From NCBI GenBank assembly GCA_051382295.1, contig JBBCAW010000023.1:14372-78371 (forward strand): a DNA stretch of 64,000 bases, in the 5' to 3' direction. The notes under the pieces were generated by a model. That model had not been told where the DNA came from. It saw only the letters and a list, made by a program, of their open reading frames with translations, and searched no databases. The DNA is from Bdellovibrionota bacterium FG-1 (lineage in GTDB: Bacteria; Bdellovibrionota; UBA1018). The translations under genes and the position numbers were made by a program. Below are positions 3,178 through 64,000 of this stretch, one piece after another (position 1 is the stretch's first letter; every line of letters begins with the position of its first letter).

Positions 3178-5219
3178 AAGTCGCTCCCCTGGGAATTCGG
3201 TTGATACCCCGGCAATTCAGACATTGCCGCGTCTTCGGCACCCGAGCGCGTTACCAAGGAACTCTCGGCCGCAAGCTGACGATCACGCGCGCCAAACTGA
3301 CTGTCGTATAAACCCAATCCATCCACCGCTAATGGCAAAATTCCACAAGGAGGGACGTCCAGCGAAAACCGACTCGCCGGGGCCGCCTCCACCTGGGCCG
3401 CACGGTTCAGGCCTGAGCCATCCCATTGAGCCGAAGCCAGAGCTACTGCTAAATCCGAAACGACCACATCTTCCGGAAATAAAATATCGGCACTCACGGC
3501 TCGGCGCGTGCTATTCAAAATAAACAGCCCTAACCCCTGTCCCTTTTTTTCAAGAGGAATCATCGCGAGCCGGCTATCGCTCATCCGGCAATAGCTTTGC
3601 ACCTCGGCCACCGACAATATCGCCGTCAAAAACGTCCGCCAACTTGAAAGCGTCTCCCCCGACATCGAAAGGTTTTCGGGCAAATCATAAATGATGAGCT
3701 TGCCCTCACCCAACGAATTCACTCGATAGGTGACACCCAAATCGATCTCGATTTGCTTGCCCTGAGCCGCGAGCCGTTCCAGTTCCTGCCGAGCTTGCGC
3801 CGTGTACAAAGGACTCCGAGGCAGGACAACCACCCGCCCGCCGGAGGCCCAGTCGGCGAGTTTTCGAACCGAATCGACCGAAAGAATCCACGAAGGATCC
3901 ACAATCAAGAGCGCCGCCTGCGCGGCCTCTGAATGAGAGGCCACACCTCGGGTTTTAGAAATAAAATCCAACGAAGAAATGAGCTGGGCCCCCGCACCCA
4001 CGCGGTGAAAAAGCTCTGTCCAAAGGGTGCCGGCCCCGGACCAAAGATGGGGCGCCAGGTAAAGGGCGCGAGTTTTTAATTTGAGATCGCCTGAGGCCAA
4101 CGATTTAGCAAATGACTCCACCCGAGTTCTAAAGTTTTGAGACAGCGAAAACCACTCACTCTCATCGATCAAAACTCCACCGCCCTGCCCCCCCATGAGC
4201 AAGAGCGTCTTGAGAATCAAAAATTGTTTTTCGGGATCCGCCAGACTGCGAAACCCGCCCAGAGATGTCCAATGAATGTAACCGCGAGTTTCGCTGGCGC
4301 TGCCATAAGAAGCCCGAGCGGAAGCTTCATCCACTAGCGCTGAAAGCTTGGCAAAATCACCATGCCCCCCCGAAAGCAGGGTCAACACATTACTGTATAC
4401 CATCGCGGGATCAGCCTCGGGCGTATGGAGCTCCATTTCCATCACTTTTATGTCAGCGGCTTTTTTTCGAACGAACTGAAAGGTTCGATTTCGAAAAACA
4501 TCCTCGGATTGCTGATGAAACCACCGGCGATTAACCTCTTCCATGGCACGGGTTTTCCAGCGATTGGCCGCCATGGGATTCGGATCCGAAAACTCCCTTT
4601 GGGAAAAAAGCTGTTCCACTCGCTGACGGTAGGCTAGCCCGGCACTGCTCGAGCAATCCCCTGCCAACCCTACATAGGGATGATCAGATGAAACCTGAGG
4701 CGAACGGTAGTATTTCCAAAAACTGCCGGTCAAAACCACGCTGATCCGCTTAAATACTTGAGGAGAATTGCGCTCGATGTCAGCCAACAAACTATCCATA
4801 CGAGATAAAAAACTGTAATAGCGCTTGGTAAATTCAGGCGAAAAAAGTGAAGGTAAATGAAAGGCGTTCGGGGCTAACGTCACTGAAACAGGGCCAGAGC
4901 CTGAATGCGCGGCCCAAGTGTCTGCCCCAATGGCGCGACTCATGACATCTTTAGGCAAACCGGAATGCGCATAGTGAATTCCGACTTCGGGCGTCAAAAT
5001 TAAATTCACTGTCATTTTTCGTTCGGATACGGACTGAAGAAACCGAACCAAGGTATGCGCAATATCCGATTCGACCGCTTGCCAAGGCACAAAAGTGGAA
5101 ATGTGCGTGACGCCATGCCTTATGAACTCATCTAGACGAGCCCCCACACAGGTCGGACGCACCTCCCAATAGTTGAATAAAATTTGAATGGGATGCTGAT
5201 TCCTTTCAGCGTTATTCAT
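3168..5219 (-). CDS. GH35/GH42 beta-galactosidase-like protein, probably divergent
   Basis: N-terminus (NYWEVRP...RLDEFIRHGVTHISTFVPWQAVE, LILTPEVGIH) resembles the GH35 TIM-barrel start. The C-terminal LLIVDP...LADWASGGRVVV resembles the GATase-like trimerisation domain. Start is uncertain (5219 or 5246). Confidence 0.55.
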   Translation of the reverse strand: MNNAERNQHPIQILFNYWEVRPTCVGARLDEFIRHGVTHISTFVPWQAVESDIAHTLVRFLQSVSERKMTVNLILTPEVGIHYAHSGLPKDVMSRAIGADTWAAHSGSGPVSVTLAPNAFHLPSLFSPEFTKRYYSFLSRMDSLLADIERNSPQVFKRISVVLTGSFWKYYRSPQVSSDHPYVGLAGDCSSSAGLAYRQRVEQLFSQREFSDPNPMAANRWKTRAMEEVNRRWFHQQSEDVFRNRTFQFVRKKAADIKVMEMELHTPEADPAMVYSNVLTLLSGGHGDFAKLSALVDEASARASYGSASETRGYIHWTSLGGFRSLADPEKQFLILKTLLLMGGQGGGVLIDESEWFSLSQNFRTRVESFAKSLASGDLKLKTRALYLAPHLWSGAGTLWTELFHRVGAGAQLISSLDFISKTRGVASHSEAAQAALLIVDPSWILSVDSVRKLADWASGGRVVVLPRSPLYTAQARQELERLAAQGKQIEIDLGVTYRVNSLGEGKLIIYDLPENLSMSGETLSSWRTFLTAILSVAEVQSYCRMSDSRLAMIPLEKKGQGLGLFILNSTRRAVSADILFPEDVVVSDLAVALASAQWDGSGLNRAAQVEAAPASRFSLDVPPCGILPLAVDGLGLYDSQFGARDRQLAAESSLVTRSGAEDAAMSELPGYQPNSQGSDLWS

Positions 5220-5258
5220 GTTATGGAGTATGGCACGGGCTACCAAAGGAGTCTAGTA

Positions 5259-6419
5259 ATGTGGTTTTTTTCTGATGAACAAAAAATGCTTCAAGAAACC
5301 GTGCGCCAATTCGCTGTCAGCCAATTGGCCCCTCGCATCGAAAAACTCGATCATGAGGAAGGTTTCAACCGTGAGTCTTTTTCCAAAATGGGTGAACTCG
5401 GCCTGCTCGGTATTACCGTTCCAGAAGAGGACGGCGGCGCGGGTCTCGGCGCGGTGGCCGCTACGATTACCATGGAAGAAATGGGGGCTGTGGATGCCTC
5501 GACCACCCTCTCCTATCTGGCCCACGCCATCCTATGCGTCAACCAGCTTGGAAAAAATGGTTCAGCAGACCAAAAGAAGAAATACCTCCCCAAGCTCCTC
5601 AGCGGAGAACACATCGGCGGAATGGGGATGAGTGAACCCGGCGCGGGCTCCGATGCGCTCGGCATGACCACCAAAGCGGTCAAACAAGGACAGGGTTACC
5701 TGGTCAATGGCACCAAAACCTGGATTACCAATGGTCCAATAGGCGATATTTTTTACGTTTACGCCAAGACGGGCCCGGGCAAAAAAGATCTTTCAACATT
5801 CATGATTGAACGCGGAATGAAGGGTTTTTCGACGGGTAAAAAATTCTCCAAAATGGGAATGCGCGCCTCGCCGACGGGCGAACTGGTCTTTGAAGATTTG
5901 ACCGTGCCGCTCGCCAATCGCGTGAGTGAAGAAGGCGCCAGCGTCAAGCACATGATGCGCAACCTCGATATTGAACGCATCACAATTGCCGGAATTTCAC
6001 TGGGGATCGCCCGCGCTTCGATTGAAGTGGCCACCCGTTACGCCAAAGAGCGCAAGCAATTTGGCAAGCCCATTGGCGCTTTTCAACAAATGCAGGAGCG
6101 CCTTACCGAAGCCGCCGCCTGGTACGAAGCCTGTCGTTGCCTGACCTACGACGCGGCCAAAATGTGGGATATGGGTTTGCTTGTCGGCAAAGAAGCCTCA
6201 ACCATGGCCGCCAAAGCGAAGCTCCAAAGTGCACAAATGGCTACGCAAGTTGCGCTCGATGCCATCCAAATTTTGGGCGGCTACGGTTACACCCGCGAGT
6301 TTCCGGTGGAGCGCTACATGCGCGACGCCAAACTCATGGAAATTGGCGCTGGAACCAACGAAATTATGCGCGTGGTGATTGCTCGGCAAATGCTGGGCAA
6401 TGAAGTGGTGGACGCGTAA
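5259..6419 (+). CDS. acyl-CoA dehydrogenase (isovaleryl-CoA dehydrogenase-like)
   Basis: MSEPGAGSD, NGTKTWITNG, RKQFGKPIG, QILGGYGY, DAKLMEIGAGTNEI. AAGGAG RBS precedes ATG 5259. Confidence 0.92.
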   Translation: MWFFSDEQKMLQETVRQFAVSQLAPRIEKLDHEEGFNRESFSKMGELGLLGITVPEEDGGAGLGAVAATITMEEMGAVDASTTLSYLAHAILCVNQLGKNGSADQKKKYLPKLLSGEHIGGMGMSEPGAGSDALGMTTKAVKQGQGYLVNGTKTWITNGPIGDIFYVYAKTGPGKKDLSTFMIERGMKGFSTGKKFSKMGMRASPTGELVFEDLTVPLANRVSEEGASVKHMMRNLDIERITIAGISLGIARASIEVATRYAKERKQFGKPIGAFQQMQERLTEAAAWYEACRCLTYDAAKMWDMGLLVGKEASTMAAKAKLQSAQMATQVALDAIQILGGYGYTREFPVERYMRDAKLMEIGAGTNEIMRVVIARQMLGNEVVDA

Positions 6420-6485
6420 ATTCGAACCCCAATGAGGATGATGATTTTAAGTTTACTCATTTTATTATCGGCCCAATTGTTATTA

Positions 6486-6738
6486 GGATCAGTTGAGCCT
6501 CCAAAACAGGGCCCAACCGCTTCAACTGCCGGCCTGAGGCAGTAAACCGGTTTGAGATGGCGATGAACACGCTTTTCTGCCGTCCAGCGGCAGTAGATTG
6601 GGTTCAGTGGGGGGACAAAGACTTCTACTGCCGGTGCGAGGCAGTAAACGGAGCTGGGGTGAGGGTCAGCGGCCTGAGCTGCCGTCTAGCGGCAGTATAT
6701 CCCACTGGCTCAAAGAAAATGAGCACCGACGTCGGTGT
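6486..6738 (-). repeat. 51-bp-period hairpin array, locus A (4 units) with palindromic leader
   Basis: CTGCC-N7-GGCAG begins at 6526, 6577, 6628 and 6679 (period 51) with different linkers. Perfect palindrome CACCGACGTCGGTG at 6724-6737. Confidence 0.9.
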
Positions 6739-6749
6739 CATCAAATACG

Positions 6750-7790
6750 TCAAATAGGAGAAAACCCCGGAATCCCAGGGGTTCCTGATTTATCCCAAGT
6801 CTGGCAACGGTCATCCACCGGGTTCTTCGACTTGATCGCTTGCACTGCACGGTTCGTTTCGCACTCATTTAAGTCATAGTAACAAACACTTGCCGGATCA
6901 TTTCCTAGACTGTAGGCGAAACAAAAGAGTGAAGCCACACAGCTCGAGGGATCTTTGTCAAAATAATCTGGCTTGATTCTCTCTTGCTCACATTCAGCCT
7001 GACCACCGTCAAAACACTTCACGGTCTCAATTCGATGAGTCAGTCGGTAGAAAAAACACGAAGCGATTGAAGGAGCGGGTGCAGCGGGTTTTAAACCAGG
7101 AAAAGTCGAGGGCAGCTCAATTCCCTTAACAACGGCCGGAAACAAATCGGCGGACGTTGGGACAAAAGGCCCTTCCAGTTCACCCAACATAAAATCTTTT
7201 TGATAACTTCCGCCAAATTGATATTCTAGAAGATGAACGAGTTCATCTGGCGTCAACGAAGTCGAACCTTTGATCCACTGCTGGGTTCCACAGGAGTGCA
7301 CACAAGCCTGCATCTCATCGCCAAATCCGTTGCCTGCACAGAAGTCCGTGCAATTATCCACATTTGCATAGACTCTCATCGTAGCAACGACTGAATTAAT
7401 TGCGGTGAGATCAAGATCGATCTTATCGCCCGCGCTACTATCCGAAAGGCAGTCATCCGCTTTCCACTGGCCATCCTTCAGATTCCAGTGAGTATTGAAA
7501 TCTCCTGTTTCCGCTACATCGCCCCCGTGCCCAGTAGTGCCAGAAATATCGACGTCTTTTTTGGAACATTTTTGATGACCAGAAGCATCCTGAACATAAA
7601 GATCGCCATGACCGACGACCGCGACATCCATATTCACAGTCTTCGCGTGCGAAGCCAGCATATGGTTAGGAAATATCAGCCGGCCACTCATATTAATGAC
7701 CAAAGAGTCGGTGTCCGCGCATGCGCCCACAAGAGCACTACTCAAAAGGGCCACGGATCCTAAAACGGAAAAACTGAATGATCTGGTCAC
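6750..7790 (-). CDS. Cys-rich hypothetical lipoprotein
   Basis: GGAGGT RBS before GTG 7790; signal peptide with lipobox LVGAC; many Cys residues; Pro/Ala linker. Confidence 0.7.
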   Translation of the reverse strand: MTRSFSFSVLGSVALLSSALVGACADTDSLVINMSGRLIFPNHMLASHAKTVNMDVAVVGHGDLYVQDASGHQKCSKKDVDISGTTGHGGDVAETGDFNTHWNLKDGQWKADDCLSDSSAGDKIDLDLTAINSVVATMRVYANVDNCTDFCAGNGFGDEMQACVHSCGTQQWIKGSTSLTPDELVHLLEYQFGGSYQKDFMLGELEGPFVPTSADLFPAVVKGIELPSTFPGLKPAAPAPSIASCFFYRLTHRIETVKCFDGGQAECEQERIKPDYFDKDPSSCVASLFCFAYSLGNDPASVCYYDLNECETNRAVQAIKSKNPVDDRCQTWDKSGTPGIPGFSPI

Positions 7791-7889
7791 GATACCTCCA
7801 ACAAAATGACGCACGTAGTTAATTTAGTAACCCATTAACACACTAAATATAAATAGTTAATAATTATTTTCAGAAATCAAACGACCTTG

Positions 7890-7989
7890 GGATCAGTTTA
7901 GCCCTCAAAAAAGGGCCTAGCTGCGTGAAAAGAGGCTTAACTGCCTGCCCGAGGCAGTAAATTCCACTGCCGGGAAGGATGAGCGCCAA
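7890..7989 (-). repeat. hairpin-repeat family locus B (1 unit)
   Basis: CTGCC-TGCCCGA-GGCAG at 7941-7957. The flank GGATCAGTTTAGCCCTCAAAAAAGGGCC is homologous to 6486-6513. Confidence 0.8.
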
Positions 7990-8143
7990 TCGCGGCGCCA
8001 ATATCGTGAGTGGTAAATGCTTTATAGATGAAGTTGAGGCCAAGTTCTCGGTAGAGAAAATTTTGGAATCGAGTACCAAAGTTGCCTGGCCTAGCAGCAA
8101 GAGACATACAGAGCTGAGTATCTTTGTTCACACAGAGTTCCAT
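7985..8143 (-). pseudogene. 5' fragment of shikimate dehydrogenase-like (SdhL/HI0607 type) gene
   Basis: NKDTQLCMSLAARPGNFGTRFQNFLYRELGLNFIYKAFTTHDI matches the SdhL N-terminus. Similarity ends after about 53 aa, where repeat locus B begins. Confidence 0.85.
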
Positions 8144-20246: not shown

Positions 20247-20345
20247 AACACCGACGTCGGTGTTCATTCTTTGAGTCAATGGGCCCCGGTGGGATTTACT
20301 GCCGCGCACAGGCAGTTGGTGCAACTCACTCCGCTGACACCGACG
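20247..20345 (+). repeat. hairpin-repeat family locus C (1 unit) with 18-bp palindrome
   Basis: AACACCGACGTCGGTGTT at 20247-20264; CTGCC-GCGCACA-GGCAG at 20299-20315; leader homologous to locus A. Confidence 0.88.
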
Positions 20346-20444: not shown

Positions 20445-20478
20445 ATGAAAGATGAAAGATGAAAGATGAAAGATGAAA
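20445..20478 (+). repeat. heptamer tandem repeat (ATGAAAG) x ~4.9
   Basis: Read directly from the sequence. Confidence 0.95.
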
Positions 20479-22931: not shown

Positions 22932-23049
22932 TCGGTGTTCGTTCTCTGAGTCAACGGGATTTACTGCCGCTAGACGGCAGCTCGAGACGCTGACCCGGGA
23001 GTGAACGAGGTTTACTGCCGCGCCCAGGCAGTTGGTGCAACTCACGCCG
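22932..23049 (+). repeat. hairpin-repeat family locus D (2 units, 51-bp period)
   Basis: CTGCC-N7-GGCAG at 22964 and 23015; only the TCGGTGTT half of the leader palindrome is present. Confidence 0.88.
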
Positions 23050-46539: not shown

Positions 46540-46645
46540 GTGGGGGGCTCCCGGAAAAAGTGAGGGGATCCGCGCGCGCAGGATGCGCTTTTTGCGCGGA
46601 GGCCAAGGAAGGCCGACCCCGACATCTTTTACCGGGAGCCCCCAC
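46540..46645. repeat. 106-bp REP-like composite stem-loop between convergent genes
   Basis: Arms GTGGGGGGCTCCCGGAAAAAG and CTTTTACCGGGAGCCCCCAC enclose inner hairpins GCGCAGGATGCGC and GGCCAAGGAAGGCC. Confidence 0.75.
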
Positions 46646-54499: not shown

Positions 54500-54628
54500 C
54501 CGAGATCCCCCAGATACTTTTCGTCGAAAAAAGGGAATTCGTGAGGAGAATGTGATCCGATTTTCAATCACGTTCACTGGATATCGAACCAAACTCCAGC
54601 AAAAACATCGAGAAAAGCGCGATAACGC

Positions 54629-54644
54629 TGGCACTCAATTTGCT
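54629..54644 (+). promoter_or_regulatory. sigma-54 promoter (near-perfect consensus)
   Basis: TGGCACTCAATTTGCT. Confidence 0.75.
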
Positions 54645-54715
54645 CAATGGGTCCCTGCCAAATCGGACAGGAAAGATGGAGCTACCCCCTTTTAACAAGA
54701 AAGGAGGTAACCCCG

Positions 54716-54871
54716 ATGAAGAATAAAACACTTGGTCGCAAGACCAACGACTATTATTCGTCTCGGATTCGGCTAGAAAAACTTAAACTAAAATCTTGGC
54801 GACTCTATGTCTACGCTAAGATTTTAGTGATTCTCGCCGATGCAATATCCTACTATCTAAGACAGCCGTGA
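54716..54871 (+). CDS. 51-aa basic/hydrophobic small protein
   Basis: AAGGAGGT Shine-Dalgarno at 54701-54708, 7 nt before ATG; sigma-54 promoter upstream. Confidence 0.6.
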   Translation: MKNKTLGRKTNDYYSSRIRLEKLKLKSWRLYVYAKILVILADAISYYLRQP

Positions 54872-54988
54872 GGAGTGCTCTGGGTGCAGCGCAACCGGAG
54901 TTCTCATGGATGGGAGCTGTCCGATTTGCATTGAAGGAGGGGGCTTTTACGGTTTGACAGGGCGACGGTCTCCGCTTACTCAGGGGGG

Positions 54989-63683: not shown

Positions 63684-63797
63684 CTCGGACTGAGTCGGGT
63701 TTACTGCCGCGCGGAGGCAGTTCGGCGCGTTCGCCTCCGACTGAGTGGGGCCTACTGCCGCATGGAGGCAGTTCGGGGCGTTCGCCTCGGACTGAGT
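63684..63797 (+). repeat. hairpin-repeat family locus E (tandem 51-bp unit x ~2.2)
   Basis: CTGCC-N7-GGCAG at 63704 and 63755; CTC(G/C)GACTGAGT at 63684, 63735 and 63786. Confidence 0.9.
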
Positions 63798-64000
63798 AAA
63801 AAAAGCCGCCCCCCTGTACAATAACGCCCCTTCCCCTTATCCTTACCTCTTAGGGGACCGCTATGAAAACTTCCCTGCTTATCCGGTTGTCACTTAATTG
63901 ATGTTTTTGAAGATTTCGCGCTGCGCGCAACGCTGTAGACTTCTCGATAGGTTAATCCAGGCCGGAGAGTTCCAAGTCCCAGTAAAGTTCGAAATGATAC

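Follow-up and report, generated by a model that had tools for sequence, protein, structure and literature searches.

The four-hairpin array at 6486..6738 of the window, as we call the whole 64-kb stretch of DNA that was analysed, is one copy of a dispersed, lineage-specific, constrained repeat family and not a guide array. The first-pass annotation had described four hairpins at an exact 51-bp period, and this description holds: CTGCC-N7-GGCAG occurs at 6526, 6577, 6628, and 6679, always on the minus strand. The window contains 10 such sites compared to 0.08 expected, a count that none of 100 shuffled sequences reached. The repeating unit is a 43-bp two-motif dyad, TSAR-N9-CTGCC-N7-GGCAG-N9-YTSA, followed by eight bases, and its consensus is symmetric.

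The four-unit array and its relatives

Along the minus strand, the array begins with a left-end module (6696..6738), in which a short palindrome with a CATT motif (6718-6738) is followed by the outer box of unit 1. This sequence had been taken for a leader; it is a module that recurs at other loci, where it tolerates substitutions and indels, and 14 of the 36 loci described below carry it within five mismatches. Units 1, 2, and 3 occupy 6666..6708 (stem-loop 6679-6695, loop GCTAGAC), 6615..6657 (stem-loop 6628-6644, loop TCGCACC), and 6564..6606 (stem-loop 6577-6593, loop GCTGGAC). Unit 4 (6513..6555; stem-loop 6526-6542, loop TCAGGCC) has a degenerate right outer box and lacks the usual terminal module. 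Linkers of 34 bases, which we designate types A (6645..6678), B (6594..6627), and C (6543..6576), separate the stems. The right flank of the array (6421..6512, minus strand) contains a putative short stub that starts at 6460 and resembles a gene start, together with a 31-base motif to which the flank of a single unit at 7941 is weakly similar (84%, E 0.027).

An acyl-CoA dehydrogenase family gene (5184..6419, plus strand) converges on the array. On the other side, a 354-aa ORF (6750..7814, minus strand) ends just short of the left-end module; it has no family match and no homologue besides itself. A terminator-like hairpin, present on both strands, lies at 6765..6785. The element occurs four more times in the window. 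The single unit at 7941..7957 (minus strand) has the same orientation as the four-unit array and abuts a shikimate-dehydrogenase-like N-terminal fragment, whereas the one at 20299..20315 (plus strand) has both left-end and terminal modules. Two pairs, each with stems 51 bp apart on the plus strand, lie at 22964..23031 (stems 22964 and 23015) and 63704..63771 (stems 63704 and 63755); the latter belongs to a subfamily that is more homogeneous and has no left-end module.

The fragment beside the unit at 7941 (7937-8143) corresponds to the N-terminal ~53 residues of a shikimate 5-dehydrogenase-like gene and ends at the left module of that unit; we saw no other clear copy of this part in the genome. 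About 130 bases behind the unit at 20299 is a 7-bp microsatellite of 4.9 copies (20445-20478). The window also contains other repeats. A GC-rich dispersed repeat of ~100 bp is found at 39 loci, including 46560-46626, and three of these are within 500 bases of a dyad array. A repeat of ~450 bp is present at 19 loci, some of them tandem (54553-54928; C22:72200-73400; C5:62200-63450), and encodes a basic and hydrophobic peptide of ~50 residues behind a hairpin covering the ribosome-binding site, an arrangement that we take to resemble type I toxin-antitoxin repeats. At the end of the window (63939-64000) begins a high-copy sequence, near-identical copies of which sit at the ends of many contigs; it is probably a collapsed insertion sequence.

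To define the family, we built a profile from stem sites with loops of seven bases and searched the 4.44-Mb source genome (97.7% complete; assembled in 158 contigs) at a threshold of 20 bits. At 20 bits or more, the search recovered 77 units at 36 loci on 23 contigs, and these loci consist of 17 single units, 7 pairs, 2 triplets, and 10 four-unit arrays. The reversed genome yielded one match of at least 12 bits (14 bits). When the genome was scanned by loop length, seven bases gave 77 sites, and all other lengths between 2 and 13 gave one to seven each. The four-unit array in the window aligns with seven other arrays over ~190-220 bases at 77-88% identity. Neighbouring units are all head-to-tail, with no inverted neighbours within 400 bases. 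The suggestion that these could be ruler-spaced, REP-like elements gains support from the genome-wide spacing, which is 51 bp in 40 of 41 intervals.

The three linkers of the array had been described as unique and unrelated, which does not survive comparison with the other loci: their nearest copies in other arrays differ at 2 (type A), 1 (type B), and 5 (type C) of 34 positions. Compared to one another, the three differ at 17-18 of 34 positions, versus 24.9 ± 2.6 for shuffled linkers, and all carry the TSAR and YTSA boxes at fixed offsets. Across the genome, most of the 40 linkers of 34 bases belong to type A, B, or C (10 members apiece), and the types appear in different orders and as hybrids among loci. 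The linkers are diverged copies of a single ancestral unit.

Two subfamilies can be distinguished. One consists of a left module, linkers in the order A-B-C, and a terminal module, and also includes shortened and reshuffled forms; the other lacks end modules, and its tandem units are more alike. The flanks of family members are trimmed back toward the dyad and whole dyads persist. The ends of the element are ragged. Of the features expected for a MITE, we saw only an inverted motif, weak and confined to a few long copies, with no duplication at the single site for which an array-less allele is available. No transposon with matching ends was found.

The family appears confined to one lineage. 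The full dyad pattern occurs 27 times in the source genome, the sole member of its genus in these searches, and in none of 115 other genomes of the order; a shorter dyad pattern gave at most two matches per genome in 400 other genomes of the phylum. In 60 relatives, the stem pattern did not rise above background, and a BLAST search of 74 genomes of the taxonomic family with the 340-bp segment that holds the array gave one weak 36-base match (E 0.006). In a collection of species genomes, a strict two-unit pattern had no matches, and a looser one found 58 loci with other flanks and periods; the sole 51-bp case among them (L099) is an unrelated homogeneous tandem. A metagenome scan returned five contigs, three of which represent one locus, that carry a different hairpin family, and scans of viral sequences revealed no 51-bp array. 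CTGCC-N7-GGCAG tandems with a period of 21-23 bp were seen in unrelated bacteria (L058, L060, L069, L073, L090, and L097). We make no strong claim that the dyad motif is unpublished, as our literature search was aimed at comparison families and not at the motif; the string CTGCC is absent from the main text of PMC3733652, a statement that does not extend to the consensus-sequence figure of that paper.

Constraint on the dyad, alleles, and neighbouring genes

The stem, loop length, and spacing are unusually intact, as if a protein reads the dyad. The 770 stem bases of the family contain seven mismatches and 71 of the 77 units have perfect stems, although the profile was trained on intact stems and stem conservation is therefore partly built in. 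Searches for orphaned parts of the element limit this bias but do not remove it: in the genome, we found no orphan linkers beyond background-like matches, allowing up to 11 mismatches, and no enrichment of orphan half-sites (56 versus 69 in the control). Six exact-stem sites from the scan for seven-base loops lie outside the family. The period is more rigid than the junction with the left module, since the distance from this module to the first stem departs from 20 in 5 of 14 loci, compared to one of 41 intervals that departs from 51 (p = 0.003).

The bases between the stems are much freer. In eight units situated between linkers A and B, divergence was 0.56 in the loop, 0.22 and 0.14 in the two linkers, and 0 in the stems; in eight units between linkers B and C, loop divergence was no higher than that of the linkers (0.21). 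In 55 of 77 units the loop opens with GC, and the bases behind it vary. Eight of the 77 fit better when reversed, four of them clearly, and the same loops are seen at different unit positions. We detected no covariation between the arms in the 66 of 77 units that were aligned, as 402 and 447 of 500 shuffles reached the observed values, and the symmetry thus looks to be read by sequence and not by pairing. The bases that would close the loop avoid pairing (G-A, 30 units; T-C, 17; G-C, 29; T-A, 1).

In a near-identical strain, a 340-bp segment holding the whole array (6421..6760) is missing from one contig. This contig, 337 bases long and from run X1, has a depth of 5.1 and differs at two positions in each arm; in it, 6420 is directly followed by 6761, and the joint, seen in this one contig, has no duplicated or shared bases. 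The array-less allele places the terminator-like hairpin directly behind the stop codon of the acyl-CoA dehydrogenase gene, which favours its interpretation as an empty site. The allele may also reflect a deletion, because the skipped DNA includes flank that does not belong to the family and the last codons of the 354-aa ORF. As this ORF lacks homologues, its natural end is of no use for orienting the event.

A second allelic difference, one of 10 bubble rows found in the assembly, involves contig C84, an alternative allele of C39:51524-53214. Both alleles have the same last unit, with identity from the foot of its stem. Upstream, C84 has Fic and PIN genes along with three further units; in C39, a left module and another gene take this place. 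Within this allele pair (C39:52637-53150 and C84:2716-3943), one allele contains an intact-looking 374-aa gene, presumably antiporter-like, and the other a remnant with several internal deletions. Apart from one allelic pair, near-identical recent copies of the element were not seen, and current mobility is not supported.

With gene positions taken from a crude ORF caller, which misassigned the 6486..6738 locus itself, arrays favour spacers between co-directional genes (20 of 26, versus 524 of 1,047; p = 0.009), and spacers between divergent genes are under-represented (4 of 26, versus 339 of 1,047). The same calls indicate that, in co-directional spacers, arrays point with transcription at 19 loci and against it at 7 (p = 0.029). 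There was no bias toward the G-rich strand (17 versus 19 of 36).

Toxin-antitoxin-type neighbours were striking at first, but such genes are common in the genome. They are not clearly enriched, being present at 12 of 36 loci and 8 of 40 control spacers (p = 0.20), and the difference reaches p = 0.03 only if four borderline loci are added. For the arrays, this comparison used 85 ORFs, namely 84 of the 129 listed and one that lies over an array, after ORFs that looked spurious or distant were dropped by eye; for the controls, all 162 ORFs were used, and two control regions overlap and one is beside an array. For the array ORFs, matches with E values up to 0.001 were considered and those at 1e-5 were counted.

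Spread of the element and comparison with known families

We consider it somewhat more probable than not that the family is a non-autonomous, lineage-specific mosaic element of the REP/BIME/BOX kind, moved in trans by a strand-transfer enzyme. The 51-bp unit multiplied in tandem, and its copies diverged to give linkers of types A, B, and C. A block consisting of the left module, up to four units, and the terminal module was then copied to many intergenic sites. Since then, whole units have dropped out of copies or been exchanged, and both ends have been cut back. The observed dynamics are loss and exchange of units and presence or absence between strains. To account for the constraint, a dimeric protein encoded elsewhere may read each half-site, CTGCC plus a TSAR box about one helical turn further out, by sequence. 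Such reading would hold the stem, the length of the loop, and the period constant and leave the loop sequence and most linker bases free to drift. The likeliest reader would be the enzyme that spreads the element by strand transfer; by analogy, this would be an HUH (RAYT-like) nuclease that either acts in trans or has been lost. Unit number would change through exchange or slippage within the invariant stems, which would preserve the 51-bp register.

In favour of this mosaic-element reading, tandem hairpins with the same stem and a spacing of 48-51 bp, which belong to an unrelated family, lie in inverted orientation on either side of an IS200-like HUH gene at locus L110 (L110:820-1645). Against it, the driver gene was not found in the genome. 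The first-pass annotation had raised a Cas6-like protein or an HUH/RAYT transposase as possible partners, and we found no candidate enzyme gene flanked by the element. The 11 HUH-type genes detected with Y1 and RAYT models all lie more than 1 kb from any unit (the closest is 1,198 bases away), the 27 tyrosine recombinase genes lie more than 11 kb from any, and neither of two Y2 transposase genes is flanked by units, a nearby stem on contig C63 scoring under the family threshold. The genome has no IS110 match and no integron integrase that reaches the cut-off.

Seven similar HUH genes of ~200 aa with weak Y1_Tnp scores (L023-L029) are scattered in the genome and have no hairpin flanks in common, and another HUH-type gene (L114; C127:14621-15538) lies between direct repeats of ~80 bp. 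A separate palindrome family, AAAGGTRC-N3-GYACCTTT, has 15 sites (C4:118672, C11:555, and others; L112); the flank of a RAYT-like gene at C78:5379-6092 (73 bits, below the cut-off) is loosely similar to it.

The closest known relatives in kind are REP, BIME, and REPIN sequences, which are described as extragenic, lineage-restricted, dispersed short palindromes that occur singly or in clusters (PMC3116915; PMC3337134; PMC3733652; PMC6006769). REPs with fixed spacing, diverse spacers, and tandem arrays have been described (PMC3116915; PMC3337134), and the preferred distance between units, diverse spacers, and copying of arrays as blocks are likenesses to the dyad family. There are also differences. 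Head-to-tail dimers, the sole arrangement here, are described as rare in REPs, and the inverted doublets of REPINs are lacking. The dyad has no GTAG/CGTC tag: within 10 bases of the stem, the 77 units carry GTAG once, GGAG once, CGTC five times, and GTGG 18 times, and the commonest four bases at the stem foot are TTTA (47 of 77). It also has a loop of fixed length, seven bases, and free sequence, a second symmetric box nine bases out, no HUH/RAYT gene flanked by the repeat, and a period tighter than the spread of 1-3 bases listed for REPIN spacings in those sources. We do not file the dyad family as a REP member, since it lacks the GTAG/CGTC tag, inverted doublets, and any RAYT gene with the repeat on its flanks.

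The pneumococcal BOX element is built as boxA-boxB(n)-boxC, that is, a left module, tandem central units, and a right module (PMC3049150). This plan of a dispersed composite with a variable number of tandem units fits one dyad subfamily, and BOX is likewise described as probably non-autonomous and dormant. In the dyad family, however, the central unit is conserved and palindromic and the ends decay; this comparison is between the published description of BOX and our element, not between sequences.

The attC sites of integrons are similar in having an outer box, a weakly paired spacer, an inner box, and a variable loop, and in their frequent position just behind a gene and in the same direction (PMC5027507). 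The dyad nevertheless fails as an attC site. It lacks the conserved AAC/GTT triplet, measures 43-47 bases compared to the 57-141 given for attC (PMC5027507), conserves sequence and not pairing, is dispersed instead of forming a cassette array, and has no IntI partner in the genome.

Alternative readings

An unlikely alternative is that the dyads are core sites of a mismatch-tolerant tyrosine recombinase, similar to IntDOT, with the 7-bp loop as the region of strand exchange. The family would then be a dispersed, integron-free cassette system, likewise improbable, in which the recombinase cuts the 7-bp centre, shuffles 51-bp units, and exchanges adjoining accessory genes, and the fixed period would reflect the geometry of a synaptic complex. 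The overlap region of IntDOT is 7 bp and starts with GC, as most of our loops do before they vary. The classical core geometry is a 7-bp centre between inverted arms (PMC8371274); the dyad has this layout, with conservation of the centre at one edge only. IntDOT is described as needing only one or two identical bases at the first cut (PMC2817482). The recurrence of identical loops at different unit positions, the allele boundary at the foot of the last stem in C84 and C39 with different genes upstream (one of 10 bubble rows), and the 27 tyrosine recombinase matches of the genome are all consistent with this proposal. However, no recombinase gene lies near a unit, half-sites are not enriched, the 340-bp difference of strain X1 breaks outside the dyads, toxin-antitoxin-type neighbours are not clearly enriched, and no integron integrase reaches the cut-off. 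Tandem arrangement at a fixed period and the lack of a linked integrase also distinguish the dyads from the core sites described in these papers.

It is also improbable that a once-mobile element is now kept as phased arrays of operators or nucleoid-protein binding sites that regulate or organise neighbouring genes. Whole dyads persist while their flanks erode, and a symmetry that looks to be read by sequence suits such a role. By a crude heuristic applied post hoc, genes downstream of arrays look secreted more often than controls (11 of 22 versus 298 of 1,204; p = 0.012). But the array at 6486..6738 sits between converging genes and is missing in a near-identical strain, divergent spacers are scarce, and the arrays show no excess of sigma-54-like promoters (2 of 24 versus 30 of 863, and 2 of 22 versus 45 of 1,204).

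We think it very unlikely that the hairpins act in RNA, as stabilisers of 3′ ends, attenuators, or protein sponges. The tendency of arrays to point with transcription, which depends on the crude ORF calls, argues for such a role, as does folding of the region, which is better than that of shuffled sequences (z = -3.4 as RNA and -4.3 as DNA). However, compensatory changes are lacking, the consensus is symmetric on both strands, the loop-closing bases avoid pairing, and no Rfam match was found. An RNA role would also leave the fixed period unexplained. As for a tRNA origin, none of the 48 tRNA calls has a matching anticodon arm.

The first-pass annotation had proposed an array, without cas genes, that is processed into guide or decoy RNAs of ~51 nt; whether conceived as CRISPR-like or TIGR-like, we give this almost no credence. 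A CTGCC/GGCAG-like stem is ascribed to type I-F CRISPR repeats, and short, regularly spaced hairpins are indeed a feature of CRISPR and TIGR arrays. TIGR arrays have two variable spacers between direct boxes C and D, together with a Tas gene (PMC12045711; bioRxiv 10.64898/2026.09.09.750476), and the two 9-base stretches that flank each stem-loop here match the TIGR spacer length (PMC12045711). But our linkers are semi-conserved, common to several arrays, and derived from one unit, a pattern that the annotation itself had named as telling against guides. They also lack targets: the best match in phages had an E value of 0.07, and plasmids gave none. The boxes of the dyad are inverted, compared to the direct pairs of TIGR, and its 9-base stretches are semi-conserved, as judged from the alignment.

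The lack of a cas gene, reported for the window, extends to the whole genome at its 97.7% completeness, in which there is no match to Cas1, Csy4, or Cas6, the last searched with PF10040 as the only Cas6 model. Nor is there a Nop-domain match (PF02371 and PF01798), although a divergent Tas could escape these models, and a crude scan of the genome found no CRISPR array. A true CRISPR array with the identical stem (L056) behaves in the opposite way, with a fixed loop, a spacing of 57-74, and unique spacers; in the dyad family, spacers recur, loops vary, the 36 loci are dispersed, and no effector gene was found.

Least credible of all is a decayed gene with a 17-residue repeat whose reading frame keeps the 51-bp period. 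The period equals 17 codons, and stops are few in two frames (12 and 13 across the 77 units), but column-shuffled units give similar counts (11.1 and 8.9), third codon positions in the stems are invariant, and one of the frequent loops reads as an in-frame stop in one of the two frames. The ORF over the 6486..6738 array has no Pfam or Atlas match, and the ORF over a sister array has one weak match to an unrelated tandem-repeat protein; we rejected a coding origin.

Our results illustrate how one copy of a dispersed family can mimic a CRISPR array without cas genes until the rest of the genome is read. The family is a modest addition to the known repeats, an element similar to REP and BOX that lacks the usual tag and a linked RAYT gene and is found in one lineage. 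If its reader were a recombinase, it would provide a new route for the exchange of accessory genes. The stem, loop length, and period are fixed across linkers that are only about half alike, with no signal of pairing, and this pattern implicates a specific protein whose footprint can be measured. The question of who spreads and keeps untagged, head-to-tail palindrome arrays thus becomes testable.
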